Positions 4,732-24,990 are shown, counted from the first letter of the stretch. The stretch: 64,000 bases of DNA from Candidatus Omnitrophota bacterium (GCA_017992455.1 JAGOOP010000001.1:123723-187722); one strand, 5' to 3'. Notes: generated by a model from the letters alone, not told the origin. Numbers and translations are program-made.

Positions 4732-4780
4732 GGTGAGCCTCCGTATAAATAGACGCTCACCGGCCCGTTATCTCACCGGA

Positions 4781-4966
4781 TTATTTCAATACGATAAGGC
4801 AGAAAAGAAGAATTGCGGCGAGGTTGACGACAACGATGAACAGGGCAGGAGTCCCGACGGGATCGACCACGGCGCGCAGATGGCTGTTGCAGAACATGCA
4901 GGTATCGAGGATCGTCCGGTATCGCGCGCGGCAGTGCGGACAGAACTTCGTTTCATGATCGCCCAT
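4781..4966 (-). CDS. Small zinc-ribbon membrane protein
   Basis: CPHC...CMFC zinc ribbon followed by one hydrophobic helix. It is a paralog in architecture of the neighbouring 5040..5249 gene. Confidence 0.55.
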   Translation of the reverse strand: MGDHETKFCPHCRARYRTILDTCMFCNSHLRAVVDPVGTPALFIVVVNLAAILLFCLIVLK

Positions 4967-5008
4967 AAAAAAACCACCATCCTTAATGTGTTCTATTAAG
5001 AACCGTGG
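4967..5008 (-). terminator. Hairpin plus U-tract between the two zinc-ribbon genes
   Basis: On the minus strand, CCACGGUUCUU...AAGGAUGGUGG forms the stem and is followed by UUUUUUU, which runs directly into the AUG at 4966. The 3' arm contains the only Shine-Dalgarno-like GGUGG. Confidence 0.55.
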
Positions 5009-5039
5009 CTTTTCTTAATAATCCGGGATCGCTTATTGC

Positions 5040-5249
5040 TTAATTTTGGCCGAACGCGCGCATGGCTGCGTTCGCGCCGAGGAAAACAAAAAGGGTAACG
5101 GTAAAACCGACCAGCGTCGCGATAAGGTCTTTGCGGCCGAGGACCTCGCCTGCCGGCCGTAACGCAGAACCGCATTTCGTGCAGGTCTTATAGATCGCCG
5201 TATGGTACGTGTCGCATTTCGGGCACAACTGCGTGTATCGCTCTGCCAT
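5040..5249 (-). CDS. Small zinc-ribbon membrane protein
   Basis: Start MAERYTQLCPKC at 5249 with a GAGGGAG Shine-Dalgarno. It has a CPKC...CTKC ribbon followed by one TM helix. Confidence 0.6.
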   Translation of the reverse strand: MAERYTQLCPKCDTYHTAIYKTCTKCGSALRPAGEVLGRKDLIATLVGFTVTLFVFLGANAAMRAFGQN

Positions 5250-5358
5250 GCTCCCTCTTTCTGTTTTCCGCGGACATACCTTCAATCTAAATATACCCCA
5301 GGGACGGCTGTTATCAAGGGCATTTTAGCCTGTTTTTGAAAGCGATTTCACCTCTCAA

Positions 5359-8300
5359 TTATCCTATGCAGACAAGAATATCTGTCAACTCAGTCCGCGT
5401 CGCAAGCCCCTGCTCCTCTTCCAAGCGCAGGATATTCAGGATACAGCGGGCCGTTTTCTCCAGATGTTCCCCTGCATCAGGCCGGCAAACGCAGACAGCA
5501 ACATATTCCTTCATCCTGGCGTAGGGCATTTCTTTTGCGCGCATCTGCGCCTCGATGGCTTTCCACTCTGCGTCCAAGTCCTGTATTTTTGAATTTCTTG
5601 CCAGCTGTTGCATTTCCAGCATCGCCTGCGGCATCATCACGGGCGCCTGCTGCGGCTGACCGCCGCCGTGCAGCGCCCGGAAATCAATGCCGGCGAGGTC
5701 CTGCTGCTGCGCGTCTATATCCCGGACCTCTCCGCCGTCCAGCTGCACCTTGGGCCGCTGTGTGTCGTTATGAGACGCTTGATTTTTTTCGATCGCATCT
5801 ATTATTTTCGGCACTTGCGGCATGATCTTTTCGTCATATGGTTTCAGCTTATCCAATCCCTTGAGCTGGCGTATTGCATCCTTACCTAATGCCGCGATTA
5901 AAACTTTTATATTTCCTTTAAAATATGCTTCGAAGACAACATCTTCCCCCACTGCTTCAATCACTCTGCAAGCCAAAAATAACGCCGGGGCATAGGAATT
6001 CTTGACGCCGAGGACTTTGCGCTCTAATTCCTGTGCCTGTAGATCCAGGGGATAGTTTGTGTCCGCGGCATCGATCAAGAAGTCTTTTAAACTCGACGTC
6101 GCTATTTTCCAGGCGGCATATTCAGTGACCCCTTCGTCAAGGATCTTGCCAATGCTTCTTAAACCGCGGGAGTTGTGGTGCAAACCTTCATGAAGCAGTA
6201 GCATTGTCAGCAGCGGGCCATCCAATTCAGAAGGAATAACATAGGTTTGGTGGAAGGGAAAGTATCCCGCAGAGTAGACGCCCACATATTTTTCAACGAT
6301 ATGGCCCGGGACAAATTTCACGTCATATGGCACAGGCGGATTCACATGTATTGCATTAAGAAAATCCGTCAACAAGACGTCATTTTCCTCCATCCGCCTT
6401 TGCTGAGACACCGAGGACTCTACGGAATGCCGTATCAGAATTATTTCTTTCTTTATGCTTTTGTTCATGTGCTTCTGTACCATCCTCCAGATAACCTCTT
6501 CGGTGGTCCCGATGTTGAATTTCCTGAGGACCTGCCGGAAATAGCGCTCAAGAACTTCTTCGGTCAGTTGCAATTTGGGATCCTTCCATGTTTCTTTGGA
6601 CGCATCAAATATCTTCCTGATTTTTTCCCGGATATCGTCTGCTTGTTGATCGAACCGAGCGGTCTCATTACTCTTGTCGTCGTCCCGCTGCGCCGCGGGC
6701 CGCTCCGTGCCGCCGTCGCGCTGCACCAGGCATTCCCGCGGCAGCCAGATCGTGACCGTCGTTCCCCCGGCATCTTCATGTTCCACGGAGGAGAACTCCG
6801 CATCCGGCACTCCTGCTTCACGCCATAGAGAGGCCAGCAATCCCGGGCTGCCGGTCTGACTGTCTCCGCGGCAGATGATATTGACATCTATACCGCTCCC
6901 TCCGAAATAGAGATCAAAACCGCGTTCCCTCATTAATTCTTTCCGTCGCGTATCGGCGGCGTACGTTCCCGCGCCATTATCTTTGATCCGTATCTGCAAG
7001 CTCTCCTTCTCATTATGCATAACCCAACCGGCACTCAACTTAAGGATCCCTGTTACGGGAGGCTGTTGTGCGGCGTGCCCGATTTCCTCCATATATTCTC
7101 TGTCATGGAATGTGGCTACGGCGTCATAACTGTTCCGCACAAGCCGAAGGATGAGATTCTGTAAAGATCGCTCGAAAATAGTCATTTCTTTGCCGTTCAC
7201 ATCCAGGAAGTCGCCGATAAACGGCTTTTTAAACTCGAGATCAGCCAGAATGGTATTCTTAACAAGGGAATCAAAGCGCCACGTTACAAATTCACTCTTC
7301 TGTTTGATCATTGAATCCTTATCCATGGGTTCTGAGTGCGAAAGAAACCCAATCGTACGGTCAACGATCTTTACGATCTGCTCCTCTGCACCCCGGTCAG
7401 CTAGCGGTGTATGCTCCGACCCAGTGCCGCCGTCGCGCTGCACCAGGCATTCCCGCGGCAGCCAGACGGTCACCGTCGCTCCCCATCCGTCATCGCCGTA
7501 CGTCAGGCTGTAAAACTGCTCTGTCGCATCTTCATTATCCTGATTCTTGGGTATGGTGACTCCCGCCAAACCCCACAGATATGCCAGGAGCCCTTGAGCG
7601 CCGGTCGCGCTGTCGCCCTTGCTGATCATCCGGGTATCCAGCCCGGCGCCGCCGAAATAGAGATTACTTCCTTCAACGAACGATTTGTGCCTGGTATCGG
7701 CAGCGAACAAGCCTGCGCCGTTATCCGCGATCGTGATCCTGAGGCTTTCTTTCCCGGTCTGCGGATGTGTTGCCCAGTGTGCGGCGAATGTCAATCTGAC
7801 CTTTTCCGGTATCGGCCTATCAGCACATCCGATCTTCCCCATATACTCGCGATCGTGGAATGTCGCAACAGCGTCATATCCGTTGACTGCAAGTTTGCGT
7901 ATAAGCGTCTTGAGCGTTGTCTCGGTTATCGTTGCCATATTTCCCTCGAATCCGTTCCCGTTTCCGAAAAATTCCCGGAACCTGATCGTAAACGGTTCCT
8001 TGTATTTCAGGCCGAAGAGGATGGTGTCTTCCATGACTGAATCGACCAGGGCGAGGAACTTATTGTTTTCTTCGATTGCCCGCTGACCGTTCATTCTCGC
8101 TTCAACAGGAGGCACCGCAAACTCGATGGTTTTTTCGACGATCTTTGCTTCACGGGAAAGAATACGCATCCGATCGGCGATATCCTCTTGGCCGAACGCT
8201 CTGCGCGCGAACCATACGAGCCGGGACTTCACCGCACGCATTCTGGTAAGAAGAGCCGCGGGTCCTAAAAAGAGACCGAATAACGCGCCTCGCGTCGTCA

Positions 8301-11300
8301 ACTCATACGTCCGCTGGACTTCGGCTGGAAAGATATCCGTGCTGTTGGAGTCGGGCGCCGAATCCTCACGCGCCTCGTTGATCTTCTCAATCAGATATTT
8401 ATGCTCATCCGGGTCAAGCCGGTCAATGCGGTCTGAAAAATACGGGTCGATCACCTTGCCGCTGATGTTCCCTACCTTTTGCTCCCTCATCCTCACGCGT
8501 TTCTCTTCATCGCCCGGATTGAGCATATACCACAAAGCCCAGCGGAGCACCCCGAACGGCCCTGCGTCATTATACGCGTGGATCTCATTGACCGCATGGC
8601 TGCTTTCATGCGCCACAATACGGACCCTCAGATCGGTCGAGTAAGAATCGAATGAATCTTTTAATATGTAAATATCGGCGCCTTTGACCAGCACGTGCGG
8701 AAATCCGATGCGCGGAAGCGCCATGCCTTCTGCCCAGGGATTCGGCAGGGGAAGTTCGTCGACGAGCGTGATCGAGACATTGCCTGACATGGCGGTCCGG
8801 GCCAGATCAGGCTCGATCAGATACAACCAGATGACCGCATGCGCCACATCGGGTTCTTTCTCCCACCGCTCCAGGGCGTGTTCTCTGAAAAGCACGTAAT
8901 CCTCATACGCGCGGAACGCCTCTTCGCTCTCATAGATCCTGCCGTCTGCGGCCTGATAAACCGAGTCATATCCGGCCTGCCCAAGAAAACTCTGCAGATC
9001 AAGGATCTGGTACATATCCGTTCTCTTCTCTTTGGTCCACTGCTCGTTCGGCTCATTGTGCAGCAGATCCATGGACACGATGGTATGCGCATCGGGAATC
9101 TGGGCCTCGAACGCTTCGTAATCCTGCTGGAACGCAACGCCGTACTTTTCTTTGTAAGCGCCCAGCTCTTTTTCAAGCACGGTCCTGAGCGCCCGCGTTT
9201 TCTGGATATCTTTGATCGCGCCGCTGTCCTGAGGCGCATGCATTGCGCCGGCAGTTTTGTAAACTTTGATCGAATTGAACGCACCCTGGGCCAGATAACT
9301 GCTCCAGTGGAATGCCTCCCTTTCAGTATAGGTATCAGGGAACAGGGCCTGCGGATCATTGCCGGCCTGAATATAACGGTCTATCGCGCCCGCCTCCTCT
9401 TTCTCAAATAAAAACTCTTTGAAGCGAGACGCGGCAGGAATTATCGGCCCGAGTTCTTCCTCGGCCTGCCGCAGATCAGCCTGCAGCCGCGCATGCCGCT
9501 CGCGCAGTTCATTCCACTCCTCGGGACGAGTTTCTTTTTCTCCCCGCTGGATCATGCCAACCATGGAAACCTGCGCGCTGAAGCTTTGATCCGTCAGGTC
9601 GCGGTGTTTCAAGAGTTCCTTGTCAATATCGCGCGTATCTTTATGCGTATTCCTGTATTCCCTGACCAGATCGTTCACTTCGTCTCTCAAAGCTTCCAGG
9701 TCCTGCAGTTCGTCATGATCGGCAGGAACCCCGCTCAAGACATCGACCTGATCGCCCACAAACCCTATCTGATATCCCATTCTGCCTTTATCGTTGAGAT
9801 ATTCCGCAATGGCTTTGGGATCCCTGCCTGTGATATCAAGGATCTCTATGATATGCCCGTCGCGGGCGCCGTAAAGCGTATATTCATTCAAATACCTGCT
9901 CAGATTCTGTACCGCGTTGCCGTTGACGACCAACAGAAGCGGAACATCATGAGTTTTTACATACGAGGCGTTTTGCTGCTCAAGATACAGGTCTGGAAGC
10001 GGATTGACAACGAGCGATATGCTGACCGGATGCGAGGTATTATCGGTTAACCCCTCCGGCTCAGATAAAAAGAACGACGTGTAATCGGTTGAATAGGGGA
10101 TTTTTTCAATATGATTAAAAGTCGTCAGGTGCAGCGGCTGCATATCCGGGCCGAGAGGATCGGATGTGTGATCATCGGCCATGCCGCTTACATACGCGTG
10201 AACGAATCCTCCTATAAAAAACGACGGAACGACAAAGAAAGCAAAAACCGCCAGCGTCTTAAAACGCCGGGAGAGCATGCCCTGCGGCTGCGGCGTGTTA
10301 GCGCTGACCATGCCTTCCTGTATTTTCCAGTTCCGGAGATCATCGCGAAGCAAAAGCAGGTCCCCGTACGTCCACGCGCGCAGATCGCCGGCCATCAGAT
10401 CCTTGAACCGCCTGAGCTTCCTTTGCGACGGGATGCCGTAGTGCGCCAGCATCAGGGGGATGATCTGCTCGATCAGCGCGTGCTTTTTGCCGCGGATATC
10501 GTCTGCCAGAGCCCGAAGGCCGTTGGCAGGGATCTCTTCTGGCAAAGAATCGATGCCCCGCGCGTCAAAATATTCCTGCACGAGCTCCCGCTGCTGCCGG
10601 ACCGCTTCTGCATGGTCGCCCGTGCCGCCGTCCCGCTGCACCGCGTCTTCATGCTGCGGGCTGAGCAAGTCGGCTTTTGTTTCTTCGAGGTCTGTCAGTA
10701 AACGGCCGCGGGGATTTCGCAAATCCTGATGCTTCATATAATCACGATTATAGAAACCTCCGGCTCTGCCGGATCCCTGCTCCCGGTTCATAATTAATTG
10801 CAGTCGATCATATGTCGCTTCCTGTATCGGCGCGGTCAATATGGTGCCATCTGCCTGCATGATAACCAGCCGACGGCCAACAATCAGATAATGCTTGGAC
10901 AAGAGCTGTTCCAGGCTATCCTGAACTGACATTCCCAGCCGGATCTTGATTTCCTTATTTGCCTGTGCCAGGCTTTCAGCTATCGCATTGCTCTGTAAAG
11001 CAGAGAATTCCTTGGCCTCCGCTGGCCTGAACCATACTATCCTTGTCTCCGGATCATTTTTGTCGCGAAATCCCGTTGCATATACGGTGGCCAGTATCTT
11101 GGACCGGATGTTCTTTTCCGGCGGGGCGCTGAAAAGGCGCACGCTCTTGCTGCCCGGAGGCAGTATCAGTTCACCGATGATATCCTCTTCGCCGCCGTCG
11201 CGCCGAGATTGACTGCCGTCTGCCTGAGAGAACTGAAATCCTGCCTCTTCCGCTATCTCGAGTAATTTAGCCCTGCCGCGCGCCAGCCAGCCGGCAATCT

Positions 11301-12522
11301 GAATTTCAGAATATCCCTGAGCCGCCAGGAAATCTTTGGCCTGTCTGACCTCATCATCATAAGGAATTCGCGTGTCATTCTCATCTTCCCCGCGTGACTG
11401 ATTTCCGCCGTCTCGCGGCACGGATCCCTTTTTATCGCCGATAGATAAATTCTGTATAATAAAATCACTCACGTATTCACGATTGTCTAACGAGGACGAT
11501 GGGATCGCGGTCAAGCTGCCGCCTGCGACCTGTATGCCGCCGGAGAAATACTGCCTTATGGTTACGCCGTATGGGCTGTTTATGGTTTCTTCTTTTCTGT
11601 ATTCGCCTTCGGAAAAGGACCGTTTGTAGGCATTAAAGCAGGAGGCTTTCGACCATGCCTCTTTTGATGCGAGTCCGTTCAGATCTTTTCCGTCGATGAC
11701 AGGGTTATCCTCATTTTTCGACTTGAACCATTGTGCCAGGATTAACGAATAATACACCTGTCGAAGCTCAGCGTATCTCTTGGAGGAATTCACCTCCCTG
11801 GTCAGCTTCGGAATGATCAGCTGGCGCACAAGGTCTGAGGAATATTCATTCAGCTTTTTAACATTCGGGTCGTCGAAATTGTAGAACGGCGAGTCCTTTA
11901 TGTAATCCTGCTCGAGCATAACTTGCAGGGTCGCCTTGTAGATGAATACACCCTGGGGGGTTTCCCTGATGATGATCTCGCCAGGCACGATCCACGGACG
12001 GGTGAATGTCGGTATCTCTATATCCTGCCCGCTGTAAGTCTGTTCTGCTTTCTCATACAGCTTGTTCCAGTATTGCCTGCCTTCGGGTGTATCGGGATTG
12101 GTAAAACGCGCGAGGTCTTTCTTCAACTGCAGGTCAGCCTCAAGCAGAACTTTTCCAAGGTCCGTCTTTTCCAGATACGGATCGATGACATTATCAGGAG
12201 AATCAGGTCGTAGATTTACCCAAAACATGCTATTGGGTAATGCCAGGCCTATTTTGAAATATTCAAAGAGTTTTCGGGAGGATTCTTCTGCCTGGCCGGG
12301 CGTGAGACTTTTAAGGTCCCCTTGATCAAGAAGAAGCTGGAAGTTGTTTGTGCTCGGATCGAATTCAATTGAACGCAGCTGAACAGGCCTGAACCTGTCT
12401 GCAACAGGCGCGAGATTGCTTAAATACGCGGGCACGGCAAACTGGCCAGCGACCTGTGCATAGCCGGTTTGCTCGGAAATAAAACAAAAACAAATTAGTA
12501 AGGCAATGATCCGCTTGAACAT
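5359..12522 (-). CDS. Giant (2,387 aa) secreted/membrane multidomain protein of unknown function
   Basis: Uninterrupted ORF with a signal peptide (MFKRIIALLICFCFISEQTGYAQ) and internal hydrophobic helices (TLAVFAFFVVPSFFIGGFVHAYV; GALFGLFLGPAALL). It has two HExxH motifs (VAHESSHAV at 8591-8620; LLLHEGLHHN at 6173-6202), two GHKL-like modules and six (R/L)DGG junction motifs. Confidence 0.9.
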   Translation of the reverse strand: MFKRIIALLICFCFISEQTGYAQVAGQFAVPAYLSNLAPVADRFRPVQLRSIEFDPSTNNFQLLLDQGDLKSLTPGQAEESSRKLFEYFKIGLALPNSMFWVNLRPDSPDNVIDPYLEKTDLGKVLLEADLQLKKDLARFTNPDTPEGRQYWNKLYEKAEQTYSGQDIEIPTFTRPWIVPGEIIIRETPQGVFIYKATLQVMLEQDYIKDSPFYNFDDPNVKKLNEYSSDLVRQLIIPKLTREVNSSKRYAELRQVYYSLILAQWFKSKNEDNPVIDGKDLNGLASKEAWSKASCFNAYKRSFSEGEYRKEETINSPYGVTIRQYFSGGIQVAGGSLTAIPSSSLDNREYVSDFIIQNLSIGDKKGSVPRDGGNQSRGEDENDTRIPYDDEVRQAKDFLAAQGYSEIQIAGWLARGRAKLLEIAEEAGFQFSQADGSQSRRDGGEEDIIGELILPPGSKSVRLFSAPPEKNIRSKILATVYATGFRDKNDPETRIVWFRPAEAKEFSALQSNAIAESLAQANKEIKIRLGMSVQDSLEQLLSKHYLIVGRRLVIMQADGTILTAPIQEATYDRLQLIMNREQGSGRAGGFYNRDYMKHQDLRNPRGRLLTDLEETKADLLSPQHEDAVQRDGGTGDHAEAVRQQRELVQEYFDARGIDSLPEEIPANGLRALADDIRGKKHALIEQIIPLMLAHYGIPSQRKLRRFKDLMAGDLRAWTYGDLLLLRDDLRNWKIQEGMVSANTPQPQGMLSRRFKTLAVFAFFVVPSFFIGGFVHAYVSGMADDHTSDPLGPDMQPLHLTTFNHIEKIPYSTDYTSFFLSEPEGLTDNTSHPVSISLVVNPLPDLYLEQQNASYVKTHDVPLLLVVNGNAVQNLSRYLNEYTLYGARDGHIIEILDITGRDPKAIAEYLNDKGRMGYQIGFVGDQVDVLSGVPADHDELQDLEALRDEVNDLVREYRNTHKDTRDIDKELLKHRDLTDQSFSAQVSMVGMIQRGEKETRPEEWNELRERHARLQADLRQAEEELGPIIPAASRFKEFLFEKEEAGAIDRYIQAGNDPQALFPDTYTEREAFHWSSYLAQGAFNSIKVYKTAGAMHAPQDSGAIKDIQKTRALRTVLEKELGAYKEKYGVAFQQDYEAFEAQIPDAHTIVSMDLLHNEPNEQWTKEKRTDMYQILDLQSFLGQAGYDSVYQAADGRIYESEEAFRAYEDYVLFREHALERWEKEPDVAHAVIWLYLIEPDLARTAMSGNVSITLVDELPLPNPWAEGMALPRIGFPHVLVKGADIYILKDSFDSYSTDLRVRIVAHESSHAVNEIHAYNDAGPFGVLRWALWYMLNPGDEEKRVRMREQKVGNISGKVIDPYFSDRIDRLDPDEHKYLIEKINEAREDSAPDSNSTDIFPAEVQRTYELTTRGALFGLFLGPAALLTRMRAVKSRLVWFARRAFGQEDIADRMRILSREAKIVEKTIEFAVPPVEARMNGQRAIEENNKFLALVDSVMEDTILFGLKYKEPFTIRFREFFGNGNGFEGNMATITETTLKTLIRKLAVNGYDAVATFHDREYMGKIGCADRPIPEKVRLTFAAHWATHPQTGKESLRITIADNGAGLFAADTRHKSFVEGSNLYFGGAGLDTRMISKGDSATGAQGLLAYLWGLAGVTIPKNQDNEDATEQFYSLTYGDDGWGATVTVWLPRECLVQRDGGTGSEHTPLADRGAEEQIVKIVDRTIGFLSHSEPMDKDSMIKQKSEFVTWRFDSLVKNTILADLEFKKPFIGDFLDVNGKEMTIFERSLQNLILRLVRNSYDAVATFHDREYMEEIGHAAQQPPVTGILKLSAGWVMHNEKESLQIRIKDNGAGTYAADTRRKELMRERGFDLYFGGSGIDVNIICRGDSQTGSPGLLASLWREAGVPDAEFSSVEHEDAGGTTVTIWLPRECLVQRDGGTERPAAQRDDDKSNETARFDQQADDIREKIRKIFDASKETWKDPKLQLTEEVLERYFRQVLRKFNIGTTEEVIWRMVQKHMNKSIKKEIILIRHSVESSVSQQRRMEENDVLLTDFLNAIHVNPPVPYDVKFVPGHIVEKYVGVYSAGYFPFHQTYVIPSELDGPLLTMLLLHEGLHHNSRGLRSIGKILDEGVTEYAAWKIATSSLKDFLIDAADTNYPLDLQAQELERKVLGVKNSYAPALFLACRVIEAVGEDVVFEAYFKGNIKVLIAALGKDAIRQLKGLDKLKPYDEKIMPQVPKIIDAIEKNQASHNDTQRPKVQLDGGEVRDIDAQQQDLAGIDFRALHGGGQPQQAPVMMPQAMLEMQQLARNSKIQDLDAEWKAIEAQMRAKEMPYARMKEYVAVCVCRPDAGEHLEKTARCILNILRLEEEQGLATRTELTDILVCIG
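6730..7180 (-). other. GHKL (Bergerat-fold) ATPase-like module 2 within the giant protein
   Basis: Motif I is LVRNSYDAV (7114-7143), motif II is IKDNGAGT (6964-6987) and the G2-like motif is YFGGSGID (6886-6909). The module ends in GGTTVTIWLPRECLVQRDGGT. Confidence 0.6.
7446..7930 (-). other. GHKL (Bergerat-fold) ATPase-like module 1 within the giant protein
   Basis: Motif I is LAVNGYDAVAT (7862-7897), motif II is IADNGAGLF (7705-7731) and the G2-like motif is YFGGAGLD (7635-7658). The module ends in GATVTVWLPRECLVQRDGGT. Confidence 0.6.
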
Positions 12523-17503: not shown

Positions 17504-17532
17504 ATTATACCCCAGATTTATAGAATTGACAA
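17504..17532 (-). promoter_or_regulatory. Sigma70-like promoter for the PG-binding lipoprotein gene
   Basis: The minus strand reads TTGTCA-N17-TATAAT (-35 at 17532-17527, -10 at 17509-17504). Confidence 0.5.
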
Positions 17533-17554
17533 ACAAGATTTTAGACTGTATCAT
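17526..17554 (+). promoter_or_regulatory. Sigma70-like promoter for tRNA-Leu
   Basis: TTGACA (17526-17531)-N17-TATCAT (17549-17554), about 18 nt upstream of the mature tRNA 5' end. Its -35 overlaps the divergent promoter's -35. Confidence 0.5.
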
Positions 17555-17571
17555 TTATATACATTCGGAAT

Positions 17572-17657
17572 CGCCGAGGTGGCGAAATGGCAGACGCGTC
17601 GGTCTCAAAAACCGATAGGGTTACACCTATGAGGGTTCAACTCCCTCCCTCGGCACC
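17572..17657 (+). tRNA. tRNA-Leu (anticodon CAA), long variable arm, CCA encoded
   Basis: The acceptor GCCGAGG pairs with CCTCGGC, the anticodon loop is CT-CAA-AA, the variable arm is TAGGGTTACACCTAT and the T arm is GAGGG-TTCAACT-CCCTC. The last 7 nt, GGCACCA, are the att core of the adjacent element. Confidence 0.9.
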
Positions 17658-17763
17658 AAATTGAACGGTTGACCCCAAAGGCTCTGTCCCTCGGGACAGA
17701 GCGCCAAAATTCGCGTTTTCGGCGAAAATTCGGCGGGGCAAATTCAAGTATAGGTGAACTTCG
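17651..17763. repeat. Inverted repeat A, left copy (113 bp)
   Basis: It is the reverse complement of 19275-19387, with one mismatch (17748 against 19290). It starts with the tRNA 3' end GGCACCA and contains the internal palindrome CTCTGTCCCTCGGGACAGAG. Confidence 0.95.
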
Positions 17764-17869
17764 TAAGGAGTTCACCTATTTCTTTTTCGGCGTCCTCAGT
17801 CAAAATTCTTTTTTTCTCCCTCATGAGGAATCCGCTGGAAACCCGAAAGGCGCAAACCTGGAGGTCGCC

Positions 17870-19477
17870 ATGAAATGCGCCGTGTACGTGCGGGTTTCCA
17901 CCGAAGAACAAGCCAAAGCGGGTTACTCTCTCGCCGCCCAGACAGATAAGATAATTGAGTTTATACGCAACAAAGGCTGGACGCACACCGAAATTTATTG
18001 CGATGACGGCTACTCTGCCGCGACGCGGCGGCGGCCAGCACTTGAGCGTTTGCTGGCCGATTCAACGGCGCGGCAGTTTGACGCCGTCCTGGTGTATAAG
18101 ATCGACCGCTTCTCGCGCAACCTCAAAGACCTGCTCGATATTGTCGAACAATTGAGCAAGAACGCCGTCGGCTTCAAGTCGATAACCGAATTGATCGATA
18201 CCACCACCCCTGAAGGCCGCCTCATGTTCCACCAGTTCGGCTCATTCGCGCAATATGAGCGCGAACTGATCGCCCAACGCGTAATGCTTGGACTGCGTAA
18301 AAGATTCCAGTCCGGCATGTGGGTAAGCGGCGTAGCTCCCTTCGGCTACAAGCAAAAGAACGGAAAACTTGAACTTGTTGATAAAGAGGCGGCCGTCGTC
18401 AAGACCATGTTCGACCTCTACACCCAAAAGAACCTCGGCGTGATAAATATCGCCCGTTACTTAAATAACGCGGGACTACGGACACGGGCCGGAAATATGT
18501 GGAAGCCGACGGTCATTCACCACATTATCACAAATCCGACTTACACAGGTTGCATAATACGCGGCGGCGAGAGAGTAACCGGGGCTCACAAACCCATTGT
18601 TAAAGAGGAAACATTTAACCGTATAAAAGAGCTCCTTCCTACTCGCAAAGCGAAAACCCGCGTGTTTGTGAGCCCCAACCTCTTCACCGGGTTCATATTC
18701 TGCGGCTGCGGCGCTCCCATGCACATGATTTATCCAGGACTGCCAAATAAGATTCGTTATAAATACTATGCCTGCTCCCGGCGCATAGCCTATAAAGACT
18801 GCAAAACCGAATATCTACGCCAGGACATCTTAGAAACCAGTGTTTTAGATCAGCTAAACAAGCTTGCCACTGATAAACCAAGACTGACCGCGATAATAAC
18901 CCTTCTTAAAAACCAGAACAACAAGCTTTTACCTGGCTTGCGCCGCAGCCGCCTGGAGCTGTCGCAAAATATCAGCGGTCTGACACAGCAAAAAAACGGG
19001 TTATTAAAATGGATGAGCGCAAAAGAAGCAAAACCTTATACGCTGAACGTACTCAATGAGAAATTCGAGAAGATCGAGCTTGAACTAAACGAATTAACGC
19101 ACAAGTTGTGGCAGACCGACGAGGAATTGAGTAAGAGGTCGCGCTTTGGCTTGTCTTCGGAGAAAGTCGCCTTGTGGCTTAAGCAAGTGATCAAGACTTA
19201 CGCGGATTCCGACCGGCAGGAGAAAAAAAGAATTTTGTCTGAGGTTTTGGAAAAGATCACAGTAAAATCAAAAGACGAAGTTCACCTATTCTTGAATTTG
19301 CCCCGCCGAATTTTCGCCGAAAACGCGAATTTTGGCGCTCTGTCCCGAGGGACAGAGCCTTTGGGGTCAACCGTTCAATTTGGTGCCCTTCGTCTGAAGA
19401 ATACCCAAAAGGCTGTTTGTCAATTAACCTACTCGATTCAATCCTACTACCAAAAGAAAGATCAGTCAAGAGAATAG
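17870..19477 (+). CDS. Large serine recombinase (resolvase domain, recombinase domain, zinc ribbon, coiled coil)
   Basis: The ATG at 17870 follows a GGAGG Shine-Dalgarno. The protein reads MKCAVYVRVSTEEQAKAGYSL...VLVYKIDRFSRN..., then CGCGAPMH...YYACSRRIAYKDCK as the zinc ribbon, then a long coiled coil. The last 68 codons lie inside the inverted repeats. The TTG-started N-terminal extension in the ORF track (17669) is repeat DNA. Confidence 0.9.
   Translation: MKCAVYVRVSTEEQAKAGYSLAAQTDKIIEFIRNKGWTHTEIYCDDGYSAATRRRPALERLLADSTARQFDAVLVYKIDRFSRNLKDLLDIVEQLSKNAVGFKSITELIDTTTPEGRLMFHQFGSFAQYERELIAQRVMLGLRKRFQSGMWVSGVAPFGYKQKNGKLELVDKEAAVVKTMFDLYTQKNLGVINIARYLNNAGLRTRAGNMWKPTVIHHIITNPTYTGCIIRGGERVTGAHKPIVKEETFNRIKELLPTRKAKTRVFVSPNLFTGFIFCGCGAPMHMIYPGLPNKIRYKYYACSRRIAYKDCKTEYLRQDILETSVLDQLNKLATDKPRLTAIITLLKNQNNKLLPGLRRSRLELSQNISGLTQQKNGLLKWMSAKEAKPYTLNVLNEKFEKIELELNELTHKLWQTDEELSKRSRFGLSSEKVALWLKQVIKTYADSDRQEKKRILSEVLEKITVKSKDEVHLFLNLPRRIFAENANFGALSRGTEPLGSTVQFGALRLKNTQKAVCQLTYSIQSYYQKKDQSRE
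19275..19387. repeat. Inverted repeat A, right copy (113 bp)
   Basis: It is the reverse complement of 17651-17763 (112/113) and lies inside the 3' end of the recombinase gene. Confidence 0.95.
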
Positions 19478-19779
19478 GCCCCGCCCGCTTGGCCGCGGGC
19501 TTCGTTGTGCCGGTGGCGTCGCTTCGCCCCGCGTGACGCGGGGCTGCGCTGGACGGCCGCTTAGGTCAGCGGCCTGGAGCTAATGCAGTCCGGGCTCGGC
19601 TCGGCTGCGGCTGGGGCTGGGTGGGGGCAGCCCCAGCCGCGCGTCCTCTCGCACCGCTGTTAAATCCCCCAGGTCGTACGCTGTGCCGCAATTAACAAAT
19701 AGAAAAACTCGGCGGTGCGGCACGCCGAGCCTCTTGGTGGATAGGTTTGAAAAGTCGCTAAGTAAACCTACACCCCGAT
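19381..19779. repeat. Inverted repeat B, left copy (399 bp)
   Basis: It is the exact reverse complement of 22528-22926, checked block by block by eye. It begins with TGGTGCC, which is shared with repeat A. Confidence 0.95.
19702..19729 (-). terminator. Rho-independent terminator inside repeat B, facing out of the cargo segment (mirror copy on the + strand at 22578-22605)
   Basis: The minus strand reads CUCGGCG-UGCCGCAC-CGCCGAG followed by UUUUUC, about 100 nt downstream of the last cargo gene. Confidence 0.6.
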
Positions 19780-19830
19780 AACACTGTTATTTTTTTAAGG
19801 GGGCACCTTTTAAGGATGCCCCCTTTCGAA

Positions 19831-20262
19831 CTATCTGTATTTTACGAATTTGGTATTCCCAAGCTCGTAATAATAGTACCAAACTTCCGAAACATTAACG
19901 TTATGTTTTGATATGAGACGCAATGCTTCGTCACAATACTTGCTTGGTACAATCAACAGAAACTTGATACCTAGGCTTCCATAATCTTTCCATTGTTCCG
20001 CTTCTGAATCAGAAACAGACTCAGCGGTTTCAATTTCTTCAATTATGACAGCCGTACCTCTAGCCGAACCTAATGAATCAGGCAGCCATACTACAACATC
20101 AGGATAACGCGGATTAGACGCAGGTCCTACAAATTGATTCTTCTCCCCACCAGGATTAGTGCTCACTTTGTAACCCTTGCGTTGCATTTCTCCATAAGTC
20201 GCAGCTGACGCACTGACTATTCTATCATGCTCGGATTCTTCCAGGGTTGTACGAATAGCCAT
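19831..20262 (-). CDS. Hypothetical 143-aa alpha/beta protein; possible PD-(D/E)xK-like fold (weak)
   Basis: Start MAIRTTLEE at 20262, after a strong AGGAGGT Shine-Dalgarno. YPDVVVW...AVIIEEIET resembles a nuclease core without the canonical Lys. An RLISKH (Rx4H) string lies near the C-terminus. I recognise no family for it. Confidence 0.5.
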   Translation of the reverse strand: MAIRTTLEESEHDRIVSASAATYGEMQRKGYKVSTNPGGEKNQFVGPASNPRYPDVVVWLPDSLGSARGTAVIIEEIETAESVSDSEAEQWKDYGSLGIKFLLIVPSKYCDEALRLISKHNVNVSEVWYYYYELGNTKFVKYR

Positions 20263-20457
20263 TATTTTTTGGTATACCTCCTTCCTAAAATTTCTGTGGG
20301 GAAGTTGCCAAAAGTATTGACTTTTCACCTCCTTAGGATATACTAATGACAACGGCACTAACACAGATATTTAGTGTCCCAAGGGTGGATAAAAGGCCCC
20401 CAAGCCAAACTTTATCCGCCCTTTTTCTTTTATTCAAAGACCATCAGTAGTTAGTTA

Positions 20458-21096
20458 TCAAACCAAGAATTTATTTAGCTCATTTACTAATATATGTACG
20501 GTCGTAGAAGGTCTTCTGACGCTAGCGGGATGAGTAGCTATGTAACCAGATAGAAGTCGCGAGGCATTTCTTATTCCATCCCCCTGTTTGTTTAGAATAA
20601 GCTGGTAGATTTCAGTACTGTTTTTCTCGTAAGGCTTACCTAAAAGTGCGCTTAACCTGGTAATATATTCCGATCGTTTTGAGGCAGTTTGATGATATTG
20701 GAAGTGTAACAAGTACCATAACTCAAAACACTCATTAGAATAAGCCACTTTGATATCATGTTTTTTTGCCAACGCAATAGCCTTTTCAAAGTTATCATCA
20801 GGATTATCATCTTTATCAAATACACACCAAATTTGATCAAACTTTATACCGTATGTTGCAGCATCTTTCTTGTACTTTATAGTCTTTTCTACAAGAGACA
20901 CTGTATTATCTCCCGGCCCAAAGATTTCGTCTTTTACTTGAGAGGAAGTTAACCGAAAACTGTTAAAATAATTAGGCTCAGTTTTCTCCCCTTCACAGAC
21001 AATTAAGAAAGTTTCTCTAACTGTCCTGACGGCAACTTGCCTTTTAGCGATTCTTGACTGTTTTCTTTTCCAAAACGCGGCGTCCGGTTCTTTCAT
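20458..21096 (-). CDS. RloB-like (Toprim-related) protein, AbiLii-type
   Basis: The N-terminal FLIVCEGEKTEPNYF motif is characteristic of RloB-like proteins, followed by WCVFDKDD. Its start is in an ATGA overlap with the upstream ATPase stop. Confidence 0.75.
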   Translation of the reverse strand: MKEPDAAFWKRKQSRIAKRQVAVRTVRETFLIVCEGEKTEPNYFNSFRLTSSQVKDEIFGPGDNTVSLVEKTIKYKKDAATYGIKFDQIWCVFDKDDNPDDNFEKAIALAKKHDIKVAYSNECFELWYLLHFQYHQTASKRSEYITRLSALLGKPYEKNSTEIYQLILNKQGDGIRNASRLLSGYIATHPASVRRPSTTVHILVNELNKFLV

Positions 21097-22346
21097 TTTC
21101 TAAAAAGCGAGTTGTCTCCTCTAATAAAAGGAATAGCTCCATATTTGCCTGCAATGTAGTCTTTCTCAAAAGAAGCATCATTTCTAACTTTATATTCTGC
21201 CAAAGAATATAAATCAGTCGCCCCATATTTATTTTTTTCTGTTAGCCATATTTGATCTCTGCGGAAAATGCTTCTATTAAAAAGATTGGTATTGTGAGAA
21301 GCAAAAACTAATTGAGCATTCTTGGGGTTATTCTCAAGAGAATTAAATAATGTTATAAGAAATTTTATTAAAATAGGGTGGAGTTTCGCGTCAAGCTCAT
21401 CAACTACTATTATGCTCCCATTCTTAAGAGTGTCTAGAAAAGGCCCGGAAAGAGCAAAGAATTTCTTAGTGCCTTCGGATTCCTCTATCCCCAAATCAAA
21501 TTTAACCGAGGATATTGGCTTGTTTTCGTTATCAAATTTTGAGTGCAAAGTTTGGATGCTAACATTGAAAACTTGTCCCTCTGGGCCAAATTTTGCTTTT
21601 TCCTTTTCAGACATATCCTCATACTTTAACTGCGTTTCCTCTAAATTAATATCCTCGATTCCTAAATCGGCTTCTTTGAGAAATCTGAGAACATTTTTCC
21701 TGAATTCCTCATCCTTGATTCTTTCAAGAGTGAACGGAACAAGCCTTACGTCTATCAGCGTAGATATAATATGGAGGTTTTTCCCAAACCAATTTAAGAT
21801 CTCTTTTGAAATCTCGCCATTCCATTGAGCAACAACCGATAAGAAGAGCGCATTAGGTCTAGTTATTTTCTCCTTTCCTTTGCCTTCTTTAAAATGCGTT
21901 CCGATTTGAAAGTTGTCCCCTTCTCTTACGAAAAGTTGAGTTTCTTTTCTAATCGGAACGCTAAAAAGCCATTCTCGTACTACCTTTTCTCTATCAACCT
22001 GAAAACCATATCTATACCTTGTTTCTTTATGAATAAAAACTACTTCGAAAAGAGATGGTTTATCATCTGTTTCAGCACTCAATTTAAAGTTTGTGACATT
22101 AATTCTTCCCTTATCTTGGGTAGAAGTTAAAACAAATTTTTTCATAAACCTCATTGCTCTAATCAAATTACTTTTCCCACTTGCGTTGGCTCCATAAATA
22201 ACTGCACTCTTCAATAACCTTAATTTATTGTTAGCTATAAATAGATTTGTATCCGCATGTTCTTTCTTAGCGGAAGCAACCATGCTGAAAGTTACAATAT
22301 CTTTAAAAGATAAGAAATTCCCTACACTAAATTCAATTATCATCAT
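21093..22346 (-). CDS. AAA15/AAA21-type ABC ATPase (AbiLi / AriA / OLD-ATPase class)
   Basis: Walker A is GANASGKSN, the signature-like motif is ESEGTKKF, Walker B is IIVVDELDAKLHP and the H-loop is FASHN. The N-terminus MIIEFSVGNFLSFKD is typical of the family. Confidence 0.85.
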   Translation of the reverse strand: MMIIEFSVGNFLSFKDIVTFSMVASAKKEHADTNLFIANNKLRLLKSAVIYGANASGKSNLIRAMRFMKKFVLTSTQDKGRINVTNFKLSAETDDKPSLFEVVFIHKETRYRYGFQVDREKVVREWLFSVPIRKETQLFVREGDNFQIGTHFKEGKGKEKITRPNALFLSVVAQWNGEISKEILNWFGKNLHIISTLIDVRLVPFTLERIKDEEFRKNVLRFLKEADLGIEDINLEETQLKYEDMSEKEKAKFGPEGQVFNVSIQTLHSKFDNENKPISSVKFDLGIEESEGTKKFFALSGPFLDTLKNGSIIVVDELDAKLHPILIKFLITLFNSLENNPKNAQLVFASHNTNLFNRSIFRRDQIWLTEKNKYGATDLYSLAEYKVRNDASFEKDYIAGKYGAIPFIRGDNSLFRK

Positions 22347-22426
22347 TATCTCCTGGGTTACAGTATCTATTAGGCATATTTTTGGACAAAGTCCACAAAT
22401 TACAATCCTATTTTATCCACAAAAGA

Positions 22427-22454
22427 AGTATAACTCAAAAATATAAAATGTCAA
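22427..22454 (-). promoter_or_regulatory. Sigma70-like promoter of the cargo operon
   Basis: The minus strand reads TTGACA (22454-22449)-N16-TATACT (22432-22427). Downstream lies a TGGAC-TTT-GTCCA palindrome (22383-22395) that could be an operator. Confidence 0.55.
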
Positions 22455-22527
22455 GCTTTTTTGTGATATTTACTCAAAAACTAGTTTTATTATTGTAGCA
22501 GCGCCATAATCGAAGTGGTTTCTAGGA

Positions 22528-22926
22528 ATCGGGGTGTAGGTTTACTTAGCGACTTTTCAAACCTATCCACCAAGAGGCTCGGCGTGCCGCACCGCCGAGT
22601 TTTTCTATTTGTTAATTGCGGCACAGCGTACGACCTGGGGGATTTAACAGCGGTGCGAGAGGACGCGCGGCTGGGGCTGCCCCCACCCAGCCCCAGCCGC
22701 AGCCGAGCCGAGCCCGGACTGCATTAGCTCCAGGCCGCTGACCTAAGCGGCCGTCCAGCGCAGCCCCGCGTCACGCGGGGCGAAGCGACGCCACCGGCAC
22801 AACGAAGCCCGCGGCCAAGCGGGCGGGGCCTATTCTCTTGACTGATCTTTCTTTTGGTAGTAGGATTGAATCGAGTAGGTTAATTGACAAACAGCCTTTT
22901 GGGTATTCTTCAGACGAAGGGCACCA
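22528..22926. repeat. Inverted repeat B, right copy (399 bp)
   Basis: It is the exact reverse complement of 19381-19779 and ends in GGGCACCA at the right boundary of the element. Confidence 0.95.
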
Positions 22927-22950
22927 GACTGATAGCCAAAAACATAGAAA

Positions 22951-22987
22951 ACATAGGGACGGTTCTCTTCGAGAACCGTCCCTATGT
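22951..22987. terminator. Bidirectional terminator in the chromosomal flank right of the element
   Basis: A perfect 17-bp stem ACATAGGGACGGTTCTC / GAGAACCGTCCCTATGT with a 3-nt loop and T-rich tracts on both sides. It lies downstream of the minus-strand gene 23023..24072. Confidence 0.7.
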
Positions 22988-22990
22988 TTT

Positions 22991-23016
22991 AAATAATTCT
23001 GACCCCGTTTTTAGCC
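22991..23016. repeat. REP-like element, single copy (AAATAATTCTGACCCCGTTTTTAGCC)
   Basis: The same 26-mer recurs at 24296-24321 and 60846-60871. Its reverse complement recurs at 24265-24290 and 60792-60817, and a partial copy lies at 27990-28011. Confidence 0.85.
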
Positions 23017-23022
23017 TTTTTA

Positions 23023-24072
23023 TCAGTCGTTGATGACGATTGTGCCGTTCTCGCACGAAATACTGTTGATCCGCATGAGATTGAGGCCGTTGGCGGAATT
23101 GGGCACCAGTTCATAAACCACGCCGTCAAGGCTCAGGACAAGCTCGCTCAACTGCTGCGCACTGGGTTCAGAAACCAGGGGCTTTCCGGTCACGATGTCG
23201 AATTCCACGGTCCCGTATTCTCCGTCATAATCGGTGCCTCCCATGCGCAGGGCAGTCCCTCCCTCAAGGACCTCGACGCTCGACAGGTCTCCGGTCCCCT
23301 CATCAAAAAGGGTCAGCGGGAAAATAGTCAATGCATCGGAGGAGGTCGTCACGAGCCCGAACCAGGCTGAATTGTCTGCCCTGACCGCCATCGCATTGGG
23401 CTCAGCCGCCATCACAACGCCTGAAAACTCGCGGTCTCCTGCGGTGAAAGATATTTCCTGGCCCACATACTGCTGGCTGCCGGACCTGACCATGGCGAGG
23501 ACTGCCGGATCAACCCCGCTATAGGTCCATTCCCCCGCGTTATTCGTGTTGATCTGAGGCGCTGTTGCCGGCACGTATCCTGTTGCTGGAATGACCGGCG
23601 AGACTGCCGGGCCCGGAGCAGGAGAAACAGGCGCTGCGGGAGCCGGAGAAACAGGCTGGGCCGATGTTGCAGGAGCTGTTTGCCCCGGCATCTGAAATAC
23701 CTGCGTCTGAACGTGCGCGGTCAGGACCGGCGTTACCATCGCCGCCTGGCGAATGGATATCGCGGGCGCGACTGCGGTCGTGTCCACTGCGTGGAACGTC
23801 TGGATCGCGGGCCTGAACGTATAGGTGTCCGCGAGGGCCGCCATGCGGTCCTGCAGGAAAGTTTCAGAGGTCTGGAACGAAAACTGCGAGAGATCCGGCT
23901 TCTGCCACTGCCCCGCCGTTTCCGAAGACGCATTCATCGTGTGTGACGGAGATTCATACACATAAGAACTGAAATCATAGGCATAGGCTGATGCTGCAAA
24001 AAAAATGCCTGCTGCGCACGCGGCAAAGAACAAAACCGCTGCTGCAGAAGAGGATTTCATCTGACTGCACAT
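23023..24072 (-). CDS. Secreted protein of unknown function with Pro/Ala-rich linker
   Basis: It has a signal peptide (AAVLFFAACAAGIFFAASAYA), a PVSPAPAAPVSPAPGPAVSPVIP linker and a C-terminal region that looks beta-rich. I recognise no family. Confidence 0.6.
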   Translation of the reverse strand: MCSQMKSSSAAAVLFFAACAAGIFFAASAYAYDFSSYVYESPSHTMNASSETAGQWQKPDLSQFSFQTSETFLQDRMAALADTYTFRPAIQTFHAVDTTAVAPAISIRQAAMVTPVLTAHVQTQVFQMPGQTAPATSAQPVSPAPAAPVSPAPGPAVSPVIPATGYVPATAPQINTNNAGEWTYSGVDPAVLAMVRSGSQQYVGQEISFTAGDREFSGVVMAAEPNAMAVRADNSAWFGLVTTSSDALTIFPLTLFDEGTGDLSSVEVLEGGTALRMGGTDYDGEYGTVEFDIVTGKPLVSEPSAQQLSELVLSLDGVVYELVPNSANGLNLMRINSISCENGTIVIND

Positions 24073-24162: not shown

Positions 24163-24264
24163 CTGATTCATGTCTGCGCTGAATGTGCGATATACTTTAT
24201 AAAGATAGCACATGCCAGACGTTTTTTCAAGGTCGGGAATAAAAATATTTTTGAATTACACCAA

Positions 24265-24321
24265 GGGCTAAAAACGGGGTCAGAATTATTTATTAAATAA
24301 TTCTGACCCCGTTTTTAGCCC
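24265..24321. repeat. REP-like element, head-to-head pair forming a 57-bp palindrome
   Basis: GGGCTAAAAACGGGGTCAGAATTATTTATTAAATAATTCTGACCCCGTTTTTAGCCC, immediately after the stop codon of the SGNH gene. Confidence 0.9.
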
Positions 24322-24990
24322 TTATTCTTTTTTGAATTTGGTCAGCAGGGCGTTCTGGTTCAAATATGGCAGGATGGCGCGATAGACCCGCTGCGCGATA
24401 AGCCGGTAGCCGTGCTCATTGGGATGAAAATAATCGCTTTTCATGCTGGCTTTGTCGAAAATGCCGTTGAGCAGGTTCGGAATATAGATCGTCCCGTATT
24501 GCCGGCTGAGCGACTGGAAAATCGGGCCGTAGTCAGACATGAGATGCATATTGCTGACATCGACCAACGCCACGATCGCTCCCTGCTTCTGGCATTGCTG
24601 TATGATCGATTCGATATTGCGCCGCGTATCTTCGAGGGCTATTTTGGTAAGGAAATCGTTTGCTCCGAACTCGACAACTACCAGAAGCGGTTCCCGGTCA
24701 AGGACGTCGGGCCTGATCCGCTTCAAAGCTCCTTCGGAGGTATCTCCTTCAATGCCGGCATTCACGACCGGGATGGACGTCAGTTTGGAAAGATACGCCG
24801 GATAGGAAGATTTCGGGCCTGCGCCGAACCCCTGGGTCAGGGAATCGCCGAAACATACGATATATTTACCCGAAGAATCTATGTTCACGATATCGCTGCG
24901 CATGCACCCTGATATGCACAGGATACCGGCGATGCCCGGGACGATCAAACTCCTGGATAAGATACGGCCGTAATGAATAACCATTTCCAT
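24322..24990 (-). CDS. SGNH/GDSL hydrolase lipoprotein (TesA/arylesterase-like)
   Basis: Lipobox CISGC. The SGNH blocks are FGDSLTQG, VEFGANDF and DYFHPNEHGY. The start is uncertain (24990 or 25020). Confidence 0.8.
   Translation of the reverse strand: MEMVIHYGRILSRSLIVPGIAGILCISGCMRSDIVNIDSSGKYIVCFGDSLTQGFGAGPKSSYPAYLSKLTSIPVVNAGIEGDTSEGALKRIRPDVLDREPLLVVVEFGANDFLTKIALEDTRRNIESIIQQCQKQGAIVALVDVSNMHLMSDYGPIFQSLSRQYGTIYIPNLLNGIFDKASMKSDYFHPNEHGYRLIAQRVYRAILPYLNQNALLTKFKKE

Follow-up and report, generated by a model that had tools for sequence, protein, structure and literature searches.

An integrative island at a tRNA-Leu(CAA) gene of an Omnitrophota bacterium, probably inserted by a large serine recombinase and carrying a spare inverted attP-like site

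Introduction

The 64,000-nt stretch of DNA from a Candidatus Omnitrophota bacterium that is analyzed here (the window, with all coordinates counted from its first letter) very probably contains a site-specific integrative island of 5,268 bp, which a large serine recombinase (LSR) placed in the 3' end of a tRNA-Leu(CAA) gene and which carries a spare, inverted attP-like site. A first-pass annotation of the window had proposed an insertion with two recombination sites. Its boundaries, target and enzyme class were right, as judged from empty sites in related contigs and from the domains of the recombinase, whereas the inverted repeats of the element and a third copy of its core, GGCACCA, had been missed; three sites are present rather than two.

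Evidence for the insertion

The element spans positions 17659-22926 (5,268 bp). Three contigs of the same species, L105 (GCA_028719275.1), L106 (an ENA assembly) and L107 (JGI Ga0265297), which were reached via homologues of the 349-aa protein encoded in the right flank, lack exactly these base pairs and carry a scar-free empty site. Their flanks are 97.5-99% identical to those of the window, and their gene order (GDSL lipase, the 349-aa gene, tRNA-Leu(CAA), PG_binding, tRNA-Ala and AP_endonuc_2) is that of the window minus the element. Across the empty site L105 reads ...CCCTCCCTCGGCACCAGACTGATAGCCAAAAACATAG, and its junction, ccctccctcGGCACCAgactgatagccaaaaacatag, is letter for letter the empty site that had been predicted beforehand; the predicted join, ...CCCTCCCTCGGCACCA|GACTGATAGCCAAAAACATAG, occurs verbatim in this contig, with equivalent empty sites in L106 and L107. 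The unique attB junction is CCCTCCCTCGGCACCAGACTGATAGCC. The presence of the element at one defined site is polymorphic among these close relatives.

The target gene, tRNA-Leu(CAA), lies at 17573-17658 on the plus strand at the left end of the element, where it had been placed before; it was identified by both ARAGORN and Rfam, and an identical tRNA is present in the empty sites of L105-L107. The tRNA is intact because the element adds sequence only after GGCACCA. Its sigma-70-like promoter (TTGACA-17-TATCAT, 17526-17554, plus strand, 11 of 12 consensus positions) is kept in the empty-site contigs and is chromosomal, outside the element. Just beyond the right repeat, where a terminator had been annotated, a chromosomal hairpin with a 20-bp stem is found at 22948-22990. 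Its counterpart directly follows the tRNA in the empty sites of L105 and L106, which identifies it as the native terminator of the tRNA, displaced by 5,268 bp through the insertion; a matching hairpin also follows the attR of a related element in L021.

The direct repeat GGCACCA is present at both ends of the element. The right copy had been located correctly at 22920-22926, whereas the left copy lies at 17652-17658 and not at 17651-17657, one base away. By itself this 7-mer carries no significance, since the window contains 11 copies where 6.4 are expected and five of 100 shuffles reach 11. The pair gains significance because a conspecific empty site exists and because a third, inverted copy is accompanied by identity of its arms.

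Foreign composition and horizontal transfer, the other marks of an integrative island, are both observed. The cargo segment (19780-22527, 2,748 bp) has a G+C content of 36.4% compared with 53-55.5% in the flanks, in agreement with its earlier description as AT-rich. In L002 (UBA6233), the tRNA and LSR region is 93.8% identical to that of the window and the flanking genes only about 72%, a contrast that points to horizontal transfer.

Three attachment sites and two inverted repeats

A four-way comparison of attB, attL, attR and the internal site defined the cores at both ends. Site 1 is attL (tRNA arm B, core, P'), with its core at 17652-17658 on the plus strand, and site 3 is attR (P, core, B'), with its core at 22920-22926 on the plus strand. 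Site 2, a spare attP-like site (P-GGCACCA-P'), has the third, inverted GGCACCA as its core (19381-19387, minus strand); it is intact and overlaps the 3' end of the recombinase gene. All four site types thus exist: attB (B-GGCACCA-B') in the empty contigs, attL, attR and the internal P-core-P'. Aligned with each other, they share only GGCACCA, consistent with the short identity core that had been regarded as typical of serine recombinases.

Two inverted repeats, located with a repeat finder and by comparison, abut at the GGCACCA of site 2. In the first (113 nt, 99%), the left arm, which is the P' arm (17652-17764, plus strand), is complementary at 112 of 113 positions to an inverted P' arm inside the recombinase coding sequence (19275-19387, minus strand). 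In the second (399 nt, 100%), the inverted P arm at 19381-19779 (plus strand) is complementary at 399 of 399 positions to the right-hand P arm at 22528-22926 (plus strand), which ends in the attR core. The cores form the exact outer ends of both repeats, and one pair of arms flanks the recombinase body (about 1.5 kb), the other the cargo (2.75 kb). Read as its reverse complement, 19275-19779 matches the predicted circular junction, in which the right end is fused to the left end, at 504 of 505 nt. The search for a circular junction (22926 joined to 17658) that the first-pass annotation had proposed would therefore give a false positive, because this junction already exists, on the minus strand, inside the integrated element.

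Patchy similarity to P' runs on to about position 17836, 34 nt before the ATG of the recombinase gene. Over a stretch of 29 nt (17765-17793), the left arm has drifted away from its coding twin, and an intrinsic terminator behind the tRNA (17750-17779, plus strand) has the downstream half of its hairpin and its T-run inside this patch. As the diverged patch supplies part of the tRNA-side terminator, the present orientation is suggested to be long-lived in this lineage. A short perfect palindrome, GCTCTGTCC..GGACAGAGC, occurs at 17681-17702 and at 19337-19358, just past the P' half-site and in the latter case within the recombinase coding region; L003, L004, L033 and L103 have a palindrome of different sequence at the equivalent position, which suggests a conserved DNA or RNA hairpin.

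The arm at 19381-19779 comprises the tail codons and stop codon of the recombinase gene, a G+C-rich hairpin block and a terminator. The block (19478-19700, with its twin at 22607-22829), recognized by its nucleotide conservation, is non-coding, has a G+C content of about 60-66% and directly follows the recombinase stop codon. It is 73-91% identical at the nucleotide level across elements whose recombinases are 65-70% identical, and one long hairpin in it keeps its pairing through compensatory changes at six pairs. Both strands fold equally well (consensus energies of -42.7 and -46.0 kcal/mol), with neither favoured, and Rfam holds no family for any part of the arms, the hairpin block included.

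Crossover point and half-sites

Site anatomy was derived from an alignment of attL and site 2 of 24 elements, in which the stretch of identity between the two begins in every case with the final bases of the acceptor stem. The window has the motif AGCCTTTTGGGT 16 nt to the left of C17654-A17655 and its complement, ACCCCAAAGGCT, 16 nt to the right, and the same 35-nt motif spacing is found in L103, the recombinase of which is only 50% identical. From this conserved spacing, which places the crossover at tRNA positions 72-73, we infer that the crossover dinucleotide is CA (C17654-A17655) here and TA in the Glu and Met elements. A palindromic dinucleotide was considered as the cause of the inverted copy and rejected as not general, since TA is confined to the Glu and Met elements.

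The motif of the attP arms is of the type CTTTKGGGT (GGGT/ACCC). The B' arm has a similar motif, TTTTTGGCT, on the opposite strand and 6 nt nearer to the centre than on the attP arms. In characterized LSRs, the zinc-ribbon motif of attB half-sites is shifted 5 bp inward (PMC3783163), and the spacing found here appears to resemble this P-type versus B-type geometry. The T-arm of the tRNA would be the other half-site, which would explain why close relatives have moved between tRNA species.

Recombinase

The LSR gene (17870-19477, plus strand, 535 aa) was identified through matches in Pfam, PHROG, NCBIfam and the PDB, at the position annotated before. Its product contains, according to Pfam, the domains PF00239 Resolvase (residues 4-150, E = 1.2e-41), PF07508 Recombinase (172-256, 1e-19) and PF13408 Zn_ribbon_recom (271-330, 1e-11), by which it is classed as an LSR. 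The catalytic motif AVYVRVSTEEQ is present, and S10 is invariant in the family alignment. The profile and similarity searches that had been recommended thus recovered LSR domains and, among solved structures, the TP901-1, SPbeta and A118 integrases; in PHROG it matches the integrase family phrog_95 (1e-126), and it shares no more than 33% identity with any integrase of the phage collection. The named NCBIfam families nearest to it all score below their cut-offs: CcrB (4.7e-63, 213.7 bits against 900), CcrC (7.8e-45, 153.4 bits against 900), CcrA (110 against 700) and XisF. The recombinase fails these cut-offs and is therefore not a member of the Ccr family.

The last approximately 67 codons of the gene run through the inverted attP-like site, and the open reading frame (ORF) is uninterrupted across the junction. 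In the tail of about 30 codons beyond the crossover, synonymous divergence (pS) is 0.27 and the ratio of nonsynonymous to synonymous divergence (pN/pS) is 0.63, compared with 0.57 and 0.20 in the body of the gene. Low pS together with high pN/pS indicates that the constraint on the tail acts mainly on the DNA.

Distribution of the three-site layout

Genome and metagenome scans yielded about 70 loci with an LSR at least 50% identical to that of the window, mostly in Candidatus Omnitrophota metagenome-assembled genomes (MAGs). The census was taken over the non-redundant loci at this level of identity for which both gene ends were available, and in all 24 of these the tRNA-adjacent arm is repeated, inverted, in the 3' end of the LSR gene. 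The arms are 77-190 nt long and 80-100% identical within an element, differ strongly between elements, and always have their inner boundary about 35 nt before the start codon. The targets are tRNA-Leu(CAA), Leu(CAG), Leu(GAG), Phe(GAA), Glu(CTC/TTC) and Met(CAT). A second, cargo-flanking pair of repeats, with an arm length that varies from 59 to about 450 nt across elements, is found wherever contigs are long enough (L023, L025, L034, L049, L052/L103 and the tRNA-Ala element of L104, designated L104-Ala); complete three-site examples are L103/L052 and L104-Ala. Many other contigs end 110-134 nt past the core of site 2, as would be expected where an assembler runs into a repeat.

More distant relatives (41-44% identity, from Spirochaetota and Dehalococcoidales) mostly have a simple form without the repeat, in which the LSR gene reads into the antisense tRNA; in L013 and L015-L018 the ORF ends a few codons into it. 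L017 (Spirochaetota, 42% identity) carries a pair of inverted recombinase copies with 89% identity over 974 nt (11-130 and 51-1020 versus 5931-6900), one of which reads into tRNA-Glu and the other through an intact attP, and it looks like a larger three-site version.

Further arrangements were seen in single loci. In L104, a further, mirror-image element with three sites and a more remote LSR lies at tRNA-Ala(GGC) (4659-9597); its uncalled recombinase ORF of 530 aa (8029-9621) reads into the tRNA, and its cargo is flanked by 450-nt inverted repeats of 76% identity. This mirror-image element across the tRNA-Ala/tRNA-Leu pair indicates that both tRNAs of the pair are targets. L102 and L104 were compared as an empty and occupied pair for the tRNA-Ala element, and the comparison was discarded since the flanks are unrelated. 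The tRNA-Glu element of L103 (also in L052) is flanked by an 80-nt direct repeat (6275-6354 and 11236-11315) that extends beyond the 4-5-nt core and has at its end a degenerate version of the 3' end of a foreign tRNA-Glu, from which it follows that an attB-like site (pseudo-tRNA end - GCTA - B'') is still present next to attR. In L006 (9725-11575), the recombinase gene lies between tRNA-Leu(CAA) and an inverted tRNA-Leu(CAG), with arms of different lineages (80% identity). It may reflect an inversion of the chromosome via the spare site, but this locus was not relied on as evidence of recombination between site 2 and a second attB, since a chimeric join via near-identical recombinase genes is equally possible. 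Finally, the recombinase segment has opposite orientations relative to tRNA-Leu(GAG) in L005 and L037 (a MAG and a JGI assembly), the DNA of which is 100% identical over 10 kb.

Cargo and neighbouring genes

The cargo had been described as free of phage and conjugation genes, and its annotation bears this out, as it consists of AbiLi, AbiLii and a 143-aa protein, all encoded on the minus strand. AbiLi (21093-22346) is an AAA_21 ATPase (Pfam 1e-40; PADLOC AbiLi 3.7e-105), and AbiLii (20458-21096) is RloB-like (Pfam RloB 2e-47; PADLOC AbiLii 6e-32); the two genes overlap by 4 nt (21093-21096). By gene content this adjacent pair would constitute an AbiL anti-phage system, which differs from the described system in that a third gene, for the 143-aa protein (P0124, KBC23_00725, 19831-20262), follows in the same operon. 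The operon has a sigma-70-like promoter (TTGACA-16-TATACT, 22427-22454, minus strand, 11 of 12 consensus positions) and ends in an intrinsic terminator (19703-19734, minus strand), the twin of which (22573-22604, plus strand) faces out of the cargo on the other side.

In Foldseek, the confident AlphaFold2 model of the 143-aa protein (pLDDT 89.6) matched SfsA, YaeQ and Can2 only weakly (best E = 1.6e-3), so that its fold is possibly PD-(D/E)xK nuclease-like. It belongs to an unannotated family of about 29 relatives and is absent from the other elements of this island family; its homologues are encoded in other islands in divergent orientation beside LexA-like or helix-turn-helix (HTH) plus ImmA (Peptidase_M78) regulators.

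The cargo differs in every element examined, with a G+C content of 31-40% throughout. It comprises two DNA methyltransferases and a LexA-like protein in L049, an NYN nuclease and an HTH protein in L104-Ala, a methyltransferase-like protein in L103, ORF6N and DUF4236 proteins in L023 and L003, TPR and DUF5696 proteins in L034, and a DnaJ-domain protein in L050. The LSR is the only gene conserved across the family, and the cargo is replaceable. The search for a candidate directionality factor was negative, with no gene besides that of the LSR shared among the cargos of nine elements. In L023, L031, L034, L036 and L062 the P arms contain an insert with a TTGACA...TAAT-like promoter that points into the cargo, and the arm is followed immediately by the start of the first cargo gene; the element of the window is without this insert and has its own cargo promoter.

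On the right, the element adjoins a gene for a 349-aa protein of unknown function (23023-24072), which is bracketed by copies of a 37-nt repeat, TATGTTTTAAATAATTCTGACCCCGTTTTTAGCC, at 22983-23019, 24263-24299 and 24287-24323; one copy is a perfect 30-nt palindrome pair. The gene is 86-90% identical at the nucleotide level to its counterparts in the empty-site contigs, compared with 97.5-99% all around, and forms a local divergence hot spot. Exact-protein look-ups found no match for the recombinase, the left-flank protein or AbiLi; the right-flank protein matched only a 1.3-kb Logan unitig, which ends in the terminator hairpin. The organism is present in the sequencing run SRR11235434.

Discussion

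For the spare attP, we infer the following role. Recombination of attL with attR would excise a 5,268-bp circle in which two inverted repeats of 505 bp, each bearing an attP, would separate the recombinase body from the cargo (2.7 kb). Either copy of attP could then be used for reinsertion: one choice would leave the recombinase gene whole, which is the isomer seen here, and the other would let it end in ...FGAEGGS*, a few codons into the antisense tRNA, with a predicted product of 508 aa. Exactly this ending is found in L006, and that of L005 is similar (...GARRGS*); judging by its sequence, L104-Ala would be the doubly flipped isomer predicted for the second route. As the repeats are inverted and not direct, homologous recombination can only flip the segments and cannot delete them. 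The recombinase may also flip them itself through the spare site, and recombination of attP with attP is reported to occur with the A118/LI and CcrAB enzymes (PMC3783163). Because no directionality factor was found and the nearest named relatives are of the Ccr type, the enzyme is expected by analogy to be bidirectional on its own, possibly flipping segments via the spare site.

Several points weigh against this interpretation. The matches to Ccr enzymes are far below threshold (214 against 900 bits), so that Ccr-like bidirectionality is to be taken as an analogy only, and a directionality factor that was not recognized could be encoded elsewhere in the host genome. Among the assemblies compared, neither the circular form nor an excision event nor a segment flip was directly observed; the opposite orientations in L005 and L037 could reflect a real inversion or the choice of an assembler faced with arms of 103-119 nt. 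To our knowledge, canonical LSRs do not recombine attP with attL or attR. Furthermore, preservation of a conserved C-terminal tail was rejected as the main reason for keeping the spare attP, since the conservation of the tail is mostly at the DNA level.

An extension of the proposal, in which the spare attP is an active, selected part of a family that is self-sufficient without a directionality factor, as a 2-micron-like circle with two usable attP sites, is a tentative possibility that falls short of being probable. In such a system, the halves would flip by recombination of attP with attP in the circle and, in the chromosome, of attP with attL or attR. The site chosen would determine whether a full-length or a truncated enzyme is encoded after integration and so provide an inbuilt means of setting its own activity or direction, and the hairpin block of the P arm would take part in this control in cis or as an RNA.

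It is rather doubtful, although conceivable, that the island is mobile and the third site a functionless relic, left when the attP region upstream of the recombinase gene was duplicated long ago in inverted orientation, with the copies kept alike by gene conversion. A relic would accord with the weak protein-level constraint on the recombinase tail and with the lack of an obvious phenotypic effect of flipping either segment, given that the arms are identical and that the cargo has its own promoter and terminators. The 41-44% relatives, too, are still at tRNA genes although mostly without the repeat, and the cargo-side arm varies in length. However, the repeat is kept in 24 of 24 testable loci, over LSR divergence down to 50% identity and six tRNA targets, with a constant inner boundary and with arms that keep 90-100% identity within an element but are strongly different between elements, and L017 has an apparently independent version in which the repeat measures 974 nt and the LSR is present in a second copy.

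That the recombinase is mainly an invertase, with sites 1/2 and 2/3 as the inversion sites of a phase-variation switch, is unlikely. The possible effect of such a switch would be to toggle the C-terminus of the recombinase and its position relative to the tRNA promoter. The cores do coincide exactly with the outer ends of the two inverted repeats, the recombinase segment is seen in both orientations among assemblies, and the flipped form would end in ...FGAEGGS*, as in L006. However, the presence/absence polymorphism and the transfer between genera indicate integration as the main activity, neither inversion splits a gene or a promoter, the orientation is unreliable in short-read assemblies for arms of this length, and the protein has an integrase-type domain set of 535 aa rather than the architecture of a small invertase.

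Finally, an assembly artefact, such as collapsed integrated and circular forms, is extremely improbable as the source of the inverted repeats, even though assemblers struggle here and many related contigs break 110-134 nt past the site-2 core: it is excluded because no mixture of integrated, circular and empty forms can generate the junctions 17819|17820 (P'-distal to recombinase start) and 22527|22528 (cargo end to P-distal) and because junctions of these types are found again in more than 24 independent assemblies from different groups and pipelines, with the recombinase ORF unbroken through the junction.

Comparison with known systems

The preferred reading, a mobile LSR island with a spare attP, can be set against several known systems. 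The phage integrases phiC31, Bxb1, A118/LI, TP901-1, phiFC1 and SPbeta SprA have the same domain set, with a zinc ribbon containing a coiled-coil insertion. The phage and island serine integrases likewise have a short identity core and a pseudo-palindromic attP, with the distal motif nearer to the centre in the bacterial half-site. Unlike in these systems, the attP of the present element lies inside the 3' coding end of the integrase gene, and a second, inverted attP is kept in the integrated state. Moreover, tRNA 3' ends, the target here, are usually targeted by tyrosine integrases rather than by LSRs.

The best named NCBIfam similarity of the recombinase is to CcrAB/CcrC of the staphylococcal cassette chromosome (SCC) element SCCmec. 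Ccr enzymes integrate and excise without a separate directionality factor, and SCC elements, like the present one, are small, non-replicative and non-conjugative islands with variable cargo at the 3' end of a conserved housekeeping gene. We know of no SCC element with an internal inverted attachment site, and the present island differs from SCC in having a single recombinase gene instead of a CcrA/B pair and a tRNA target instead of rlmH. Ccr enzymes have also been reported to recombine attP-type sites with each other (PMC3783163).

In its working, the island is closest to SCC or to Tn4451-type elements, as an LSR-driven, non-replicative and non-conjugative islet; Tn4451 and Tn5397 were compared by description. 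In Tn4451 (TnpX) and Tn5397 (TndX), excision to a circle and insertion require no element-encoded protein other than the LSR. These elements have a GA dinucleotide, targets of low specificity and mobilization functions, and no inverted spare site.

Other likenesses are analogies of form only. In the Hin system, with the recombinase gene inside, and in the Gin and Cin systems, with the gene adjacent, a segment is bracketed by inverted repeats with the crossover sites at the repeat ends, as here; in Cin and Gin these are long repeats with the crossover sites at their outer ends. The Hin, Gin and Cin enzymes are small invertases of about 190 aa, which have an HTH at the C-terminus and depend on an enhancer and Fis; they switch expression and do not integrate, whereas nothing is visibly switched here and the element is demonstrably an insertion. 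The predicted circle would resemble the yeast 2-micron circle (FLP, 599-bp inverted repeats) in having two site-bearing repeats and one unique segment that encodes the recombinase. FLP is a tyrosine recombinase, and the 2-micron circle replicates and uses inversion for copy-number amplification, whereas domain and defence-system annotation found no replication gene in the present element. In SSV1-type integrases and in mycobacteriophage integration-dependent immunity, attP lies in a gene of the element and integration alters the 3' end of that gene, a likeness seen in the simpler relatives (L013, L015-L018) and in flipped isomers, whose LSR ORF ends in the antisense tRNA. Both use tyrosine recombinases. 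Unlike in these systems, a second copy of attP would let an intact gene persist here after integration.

Significance

The three-site layout is an architectural variant that was not found described among LSR islands in the literature searched: no account of tRNA-targeting LSR islands, or of any with an internal inverted attP, was encountered, although coverage was incomplete and this is absence of evidence only. It raises the question of whether an LSR island can control its own direction or stability through an internal attP. Serine integrases are prized as genome-engineering tools because only two short sites are needed; those known seldom have tRNA genes as targets and require a separate factor for the reverse reaction. 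The closely related recombinases found here at the conserved 3' end of at least six tRNA species represent a natural series for the re-programming of LSR targets.

For practical purposes, junction-based detection of circular forms would yield false positives for this island family, and assemblies made from short reads are interrupted at these repeats and may show the enclosed segments in an arbitrary orientation. For the organisms themselves, Omnitrophota evidently move small defence and other cargo on such islets.

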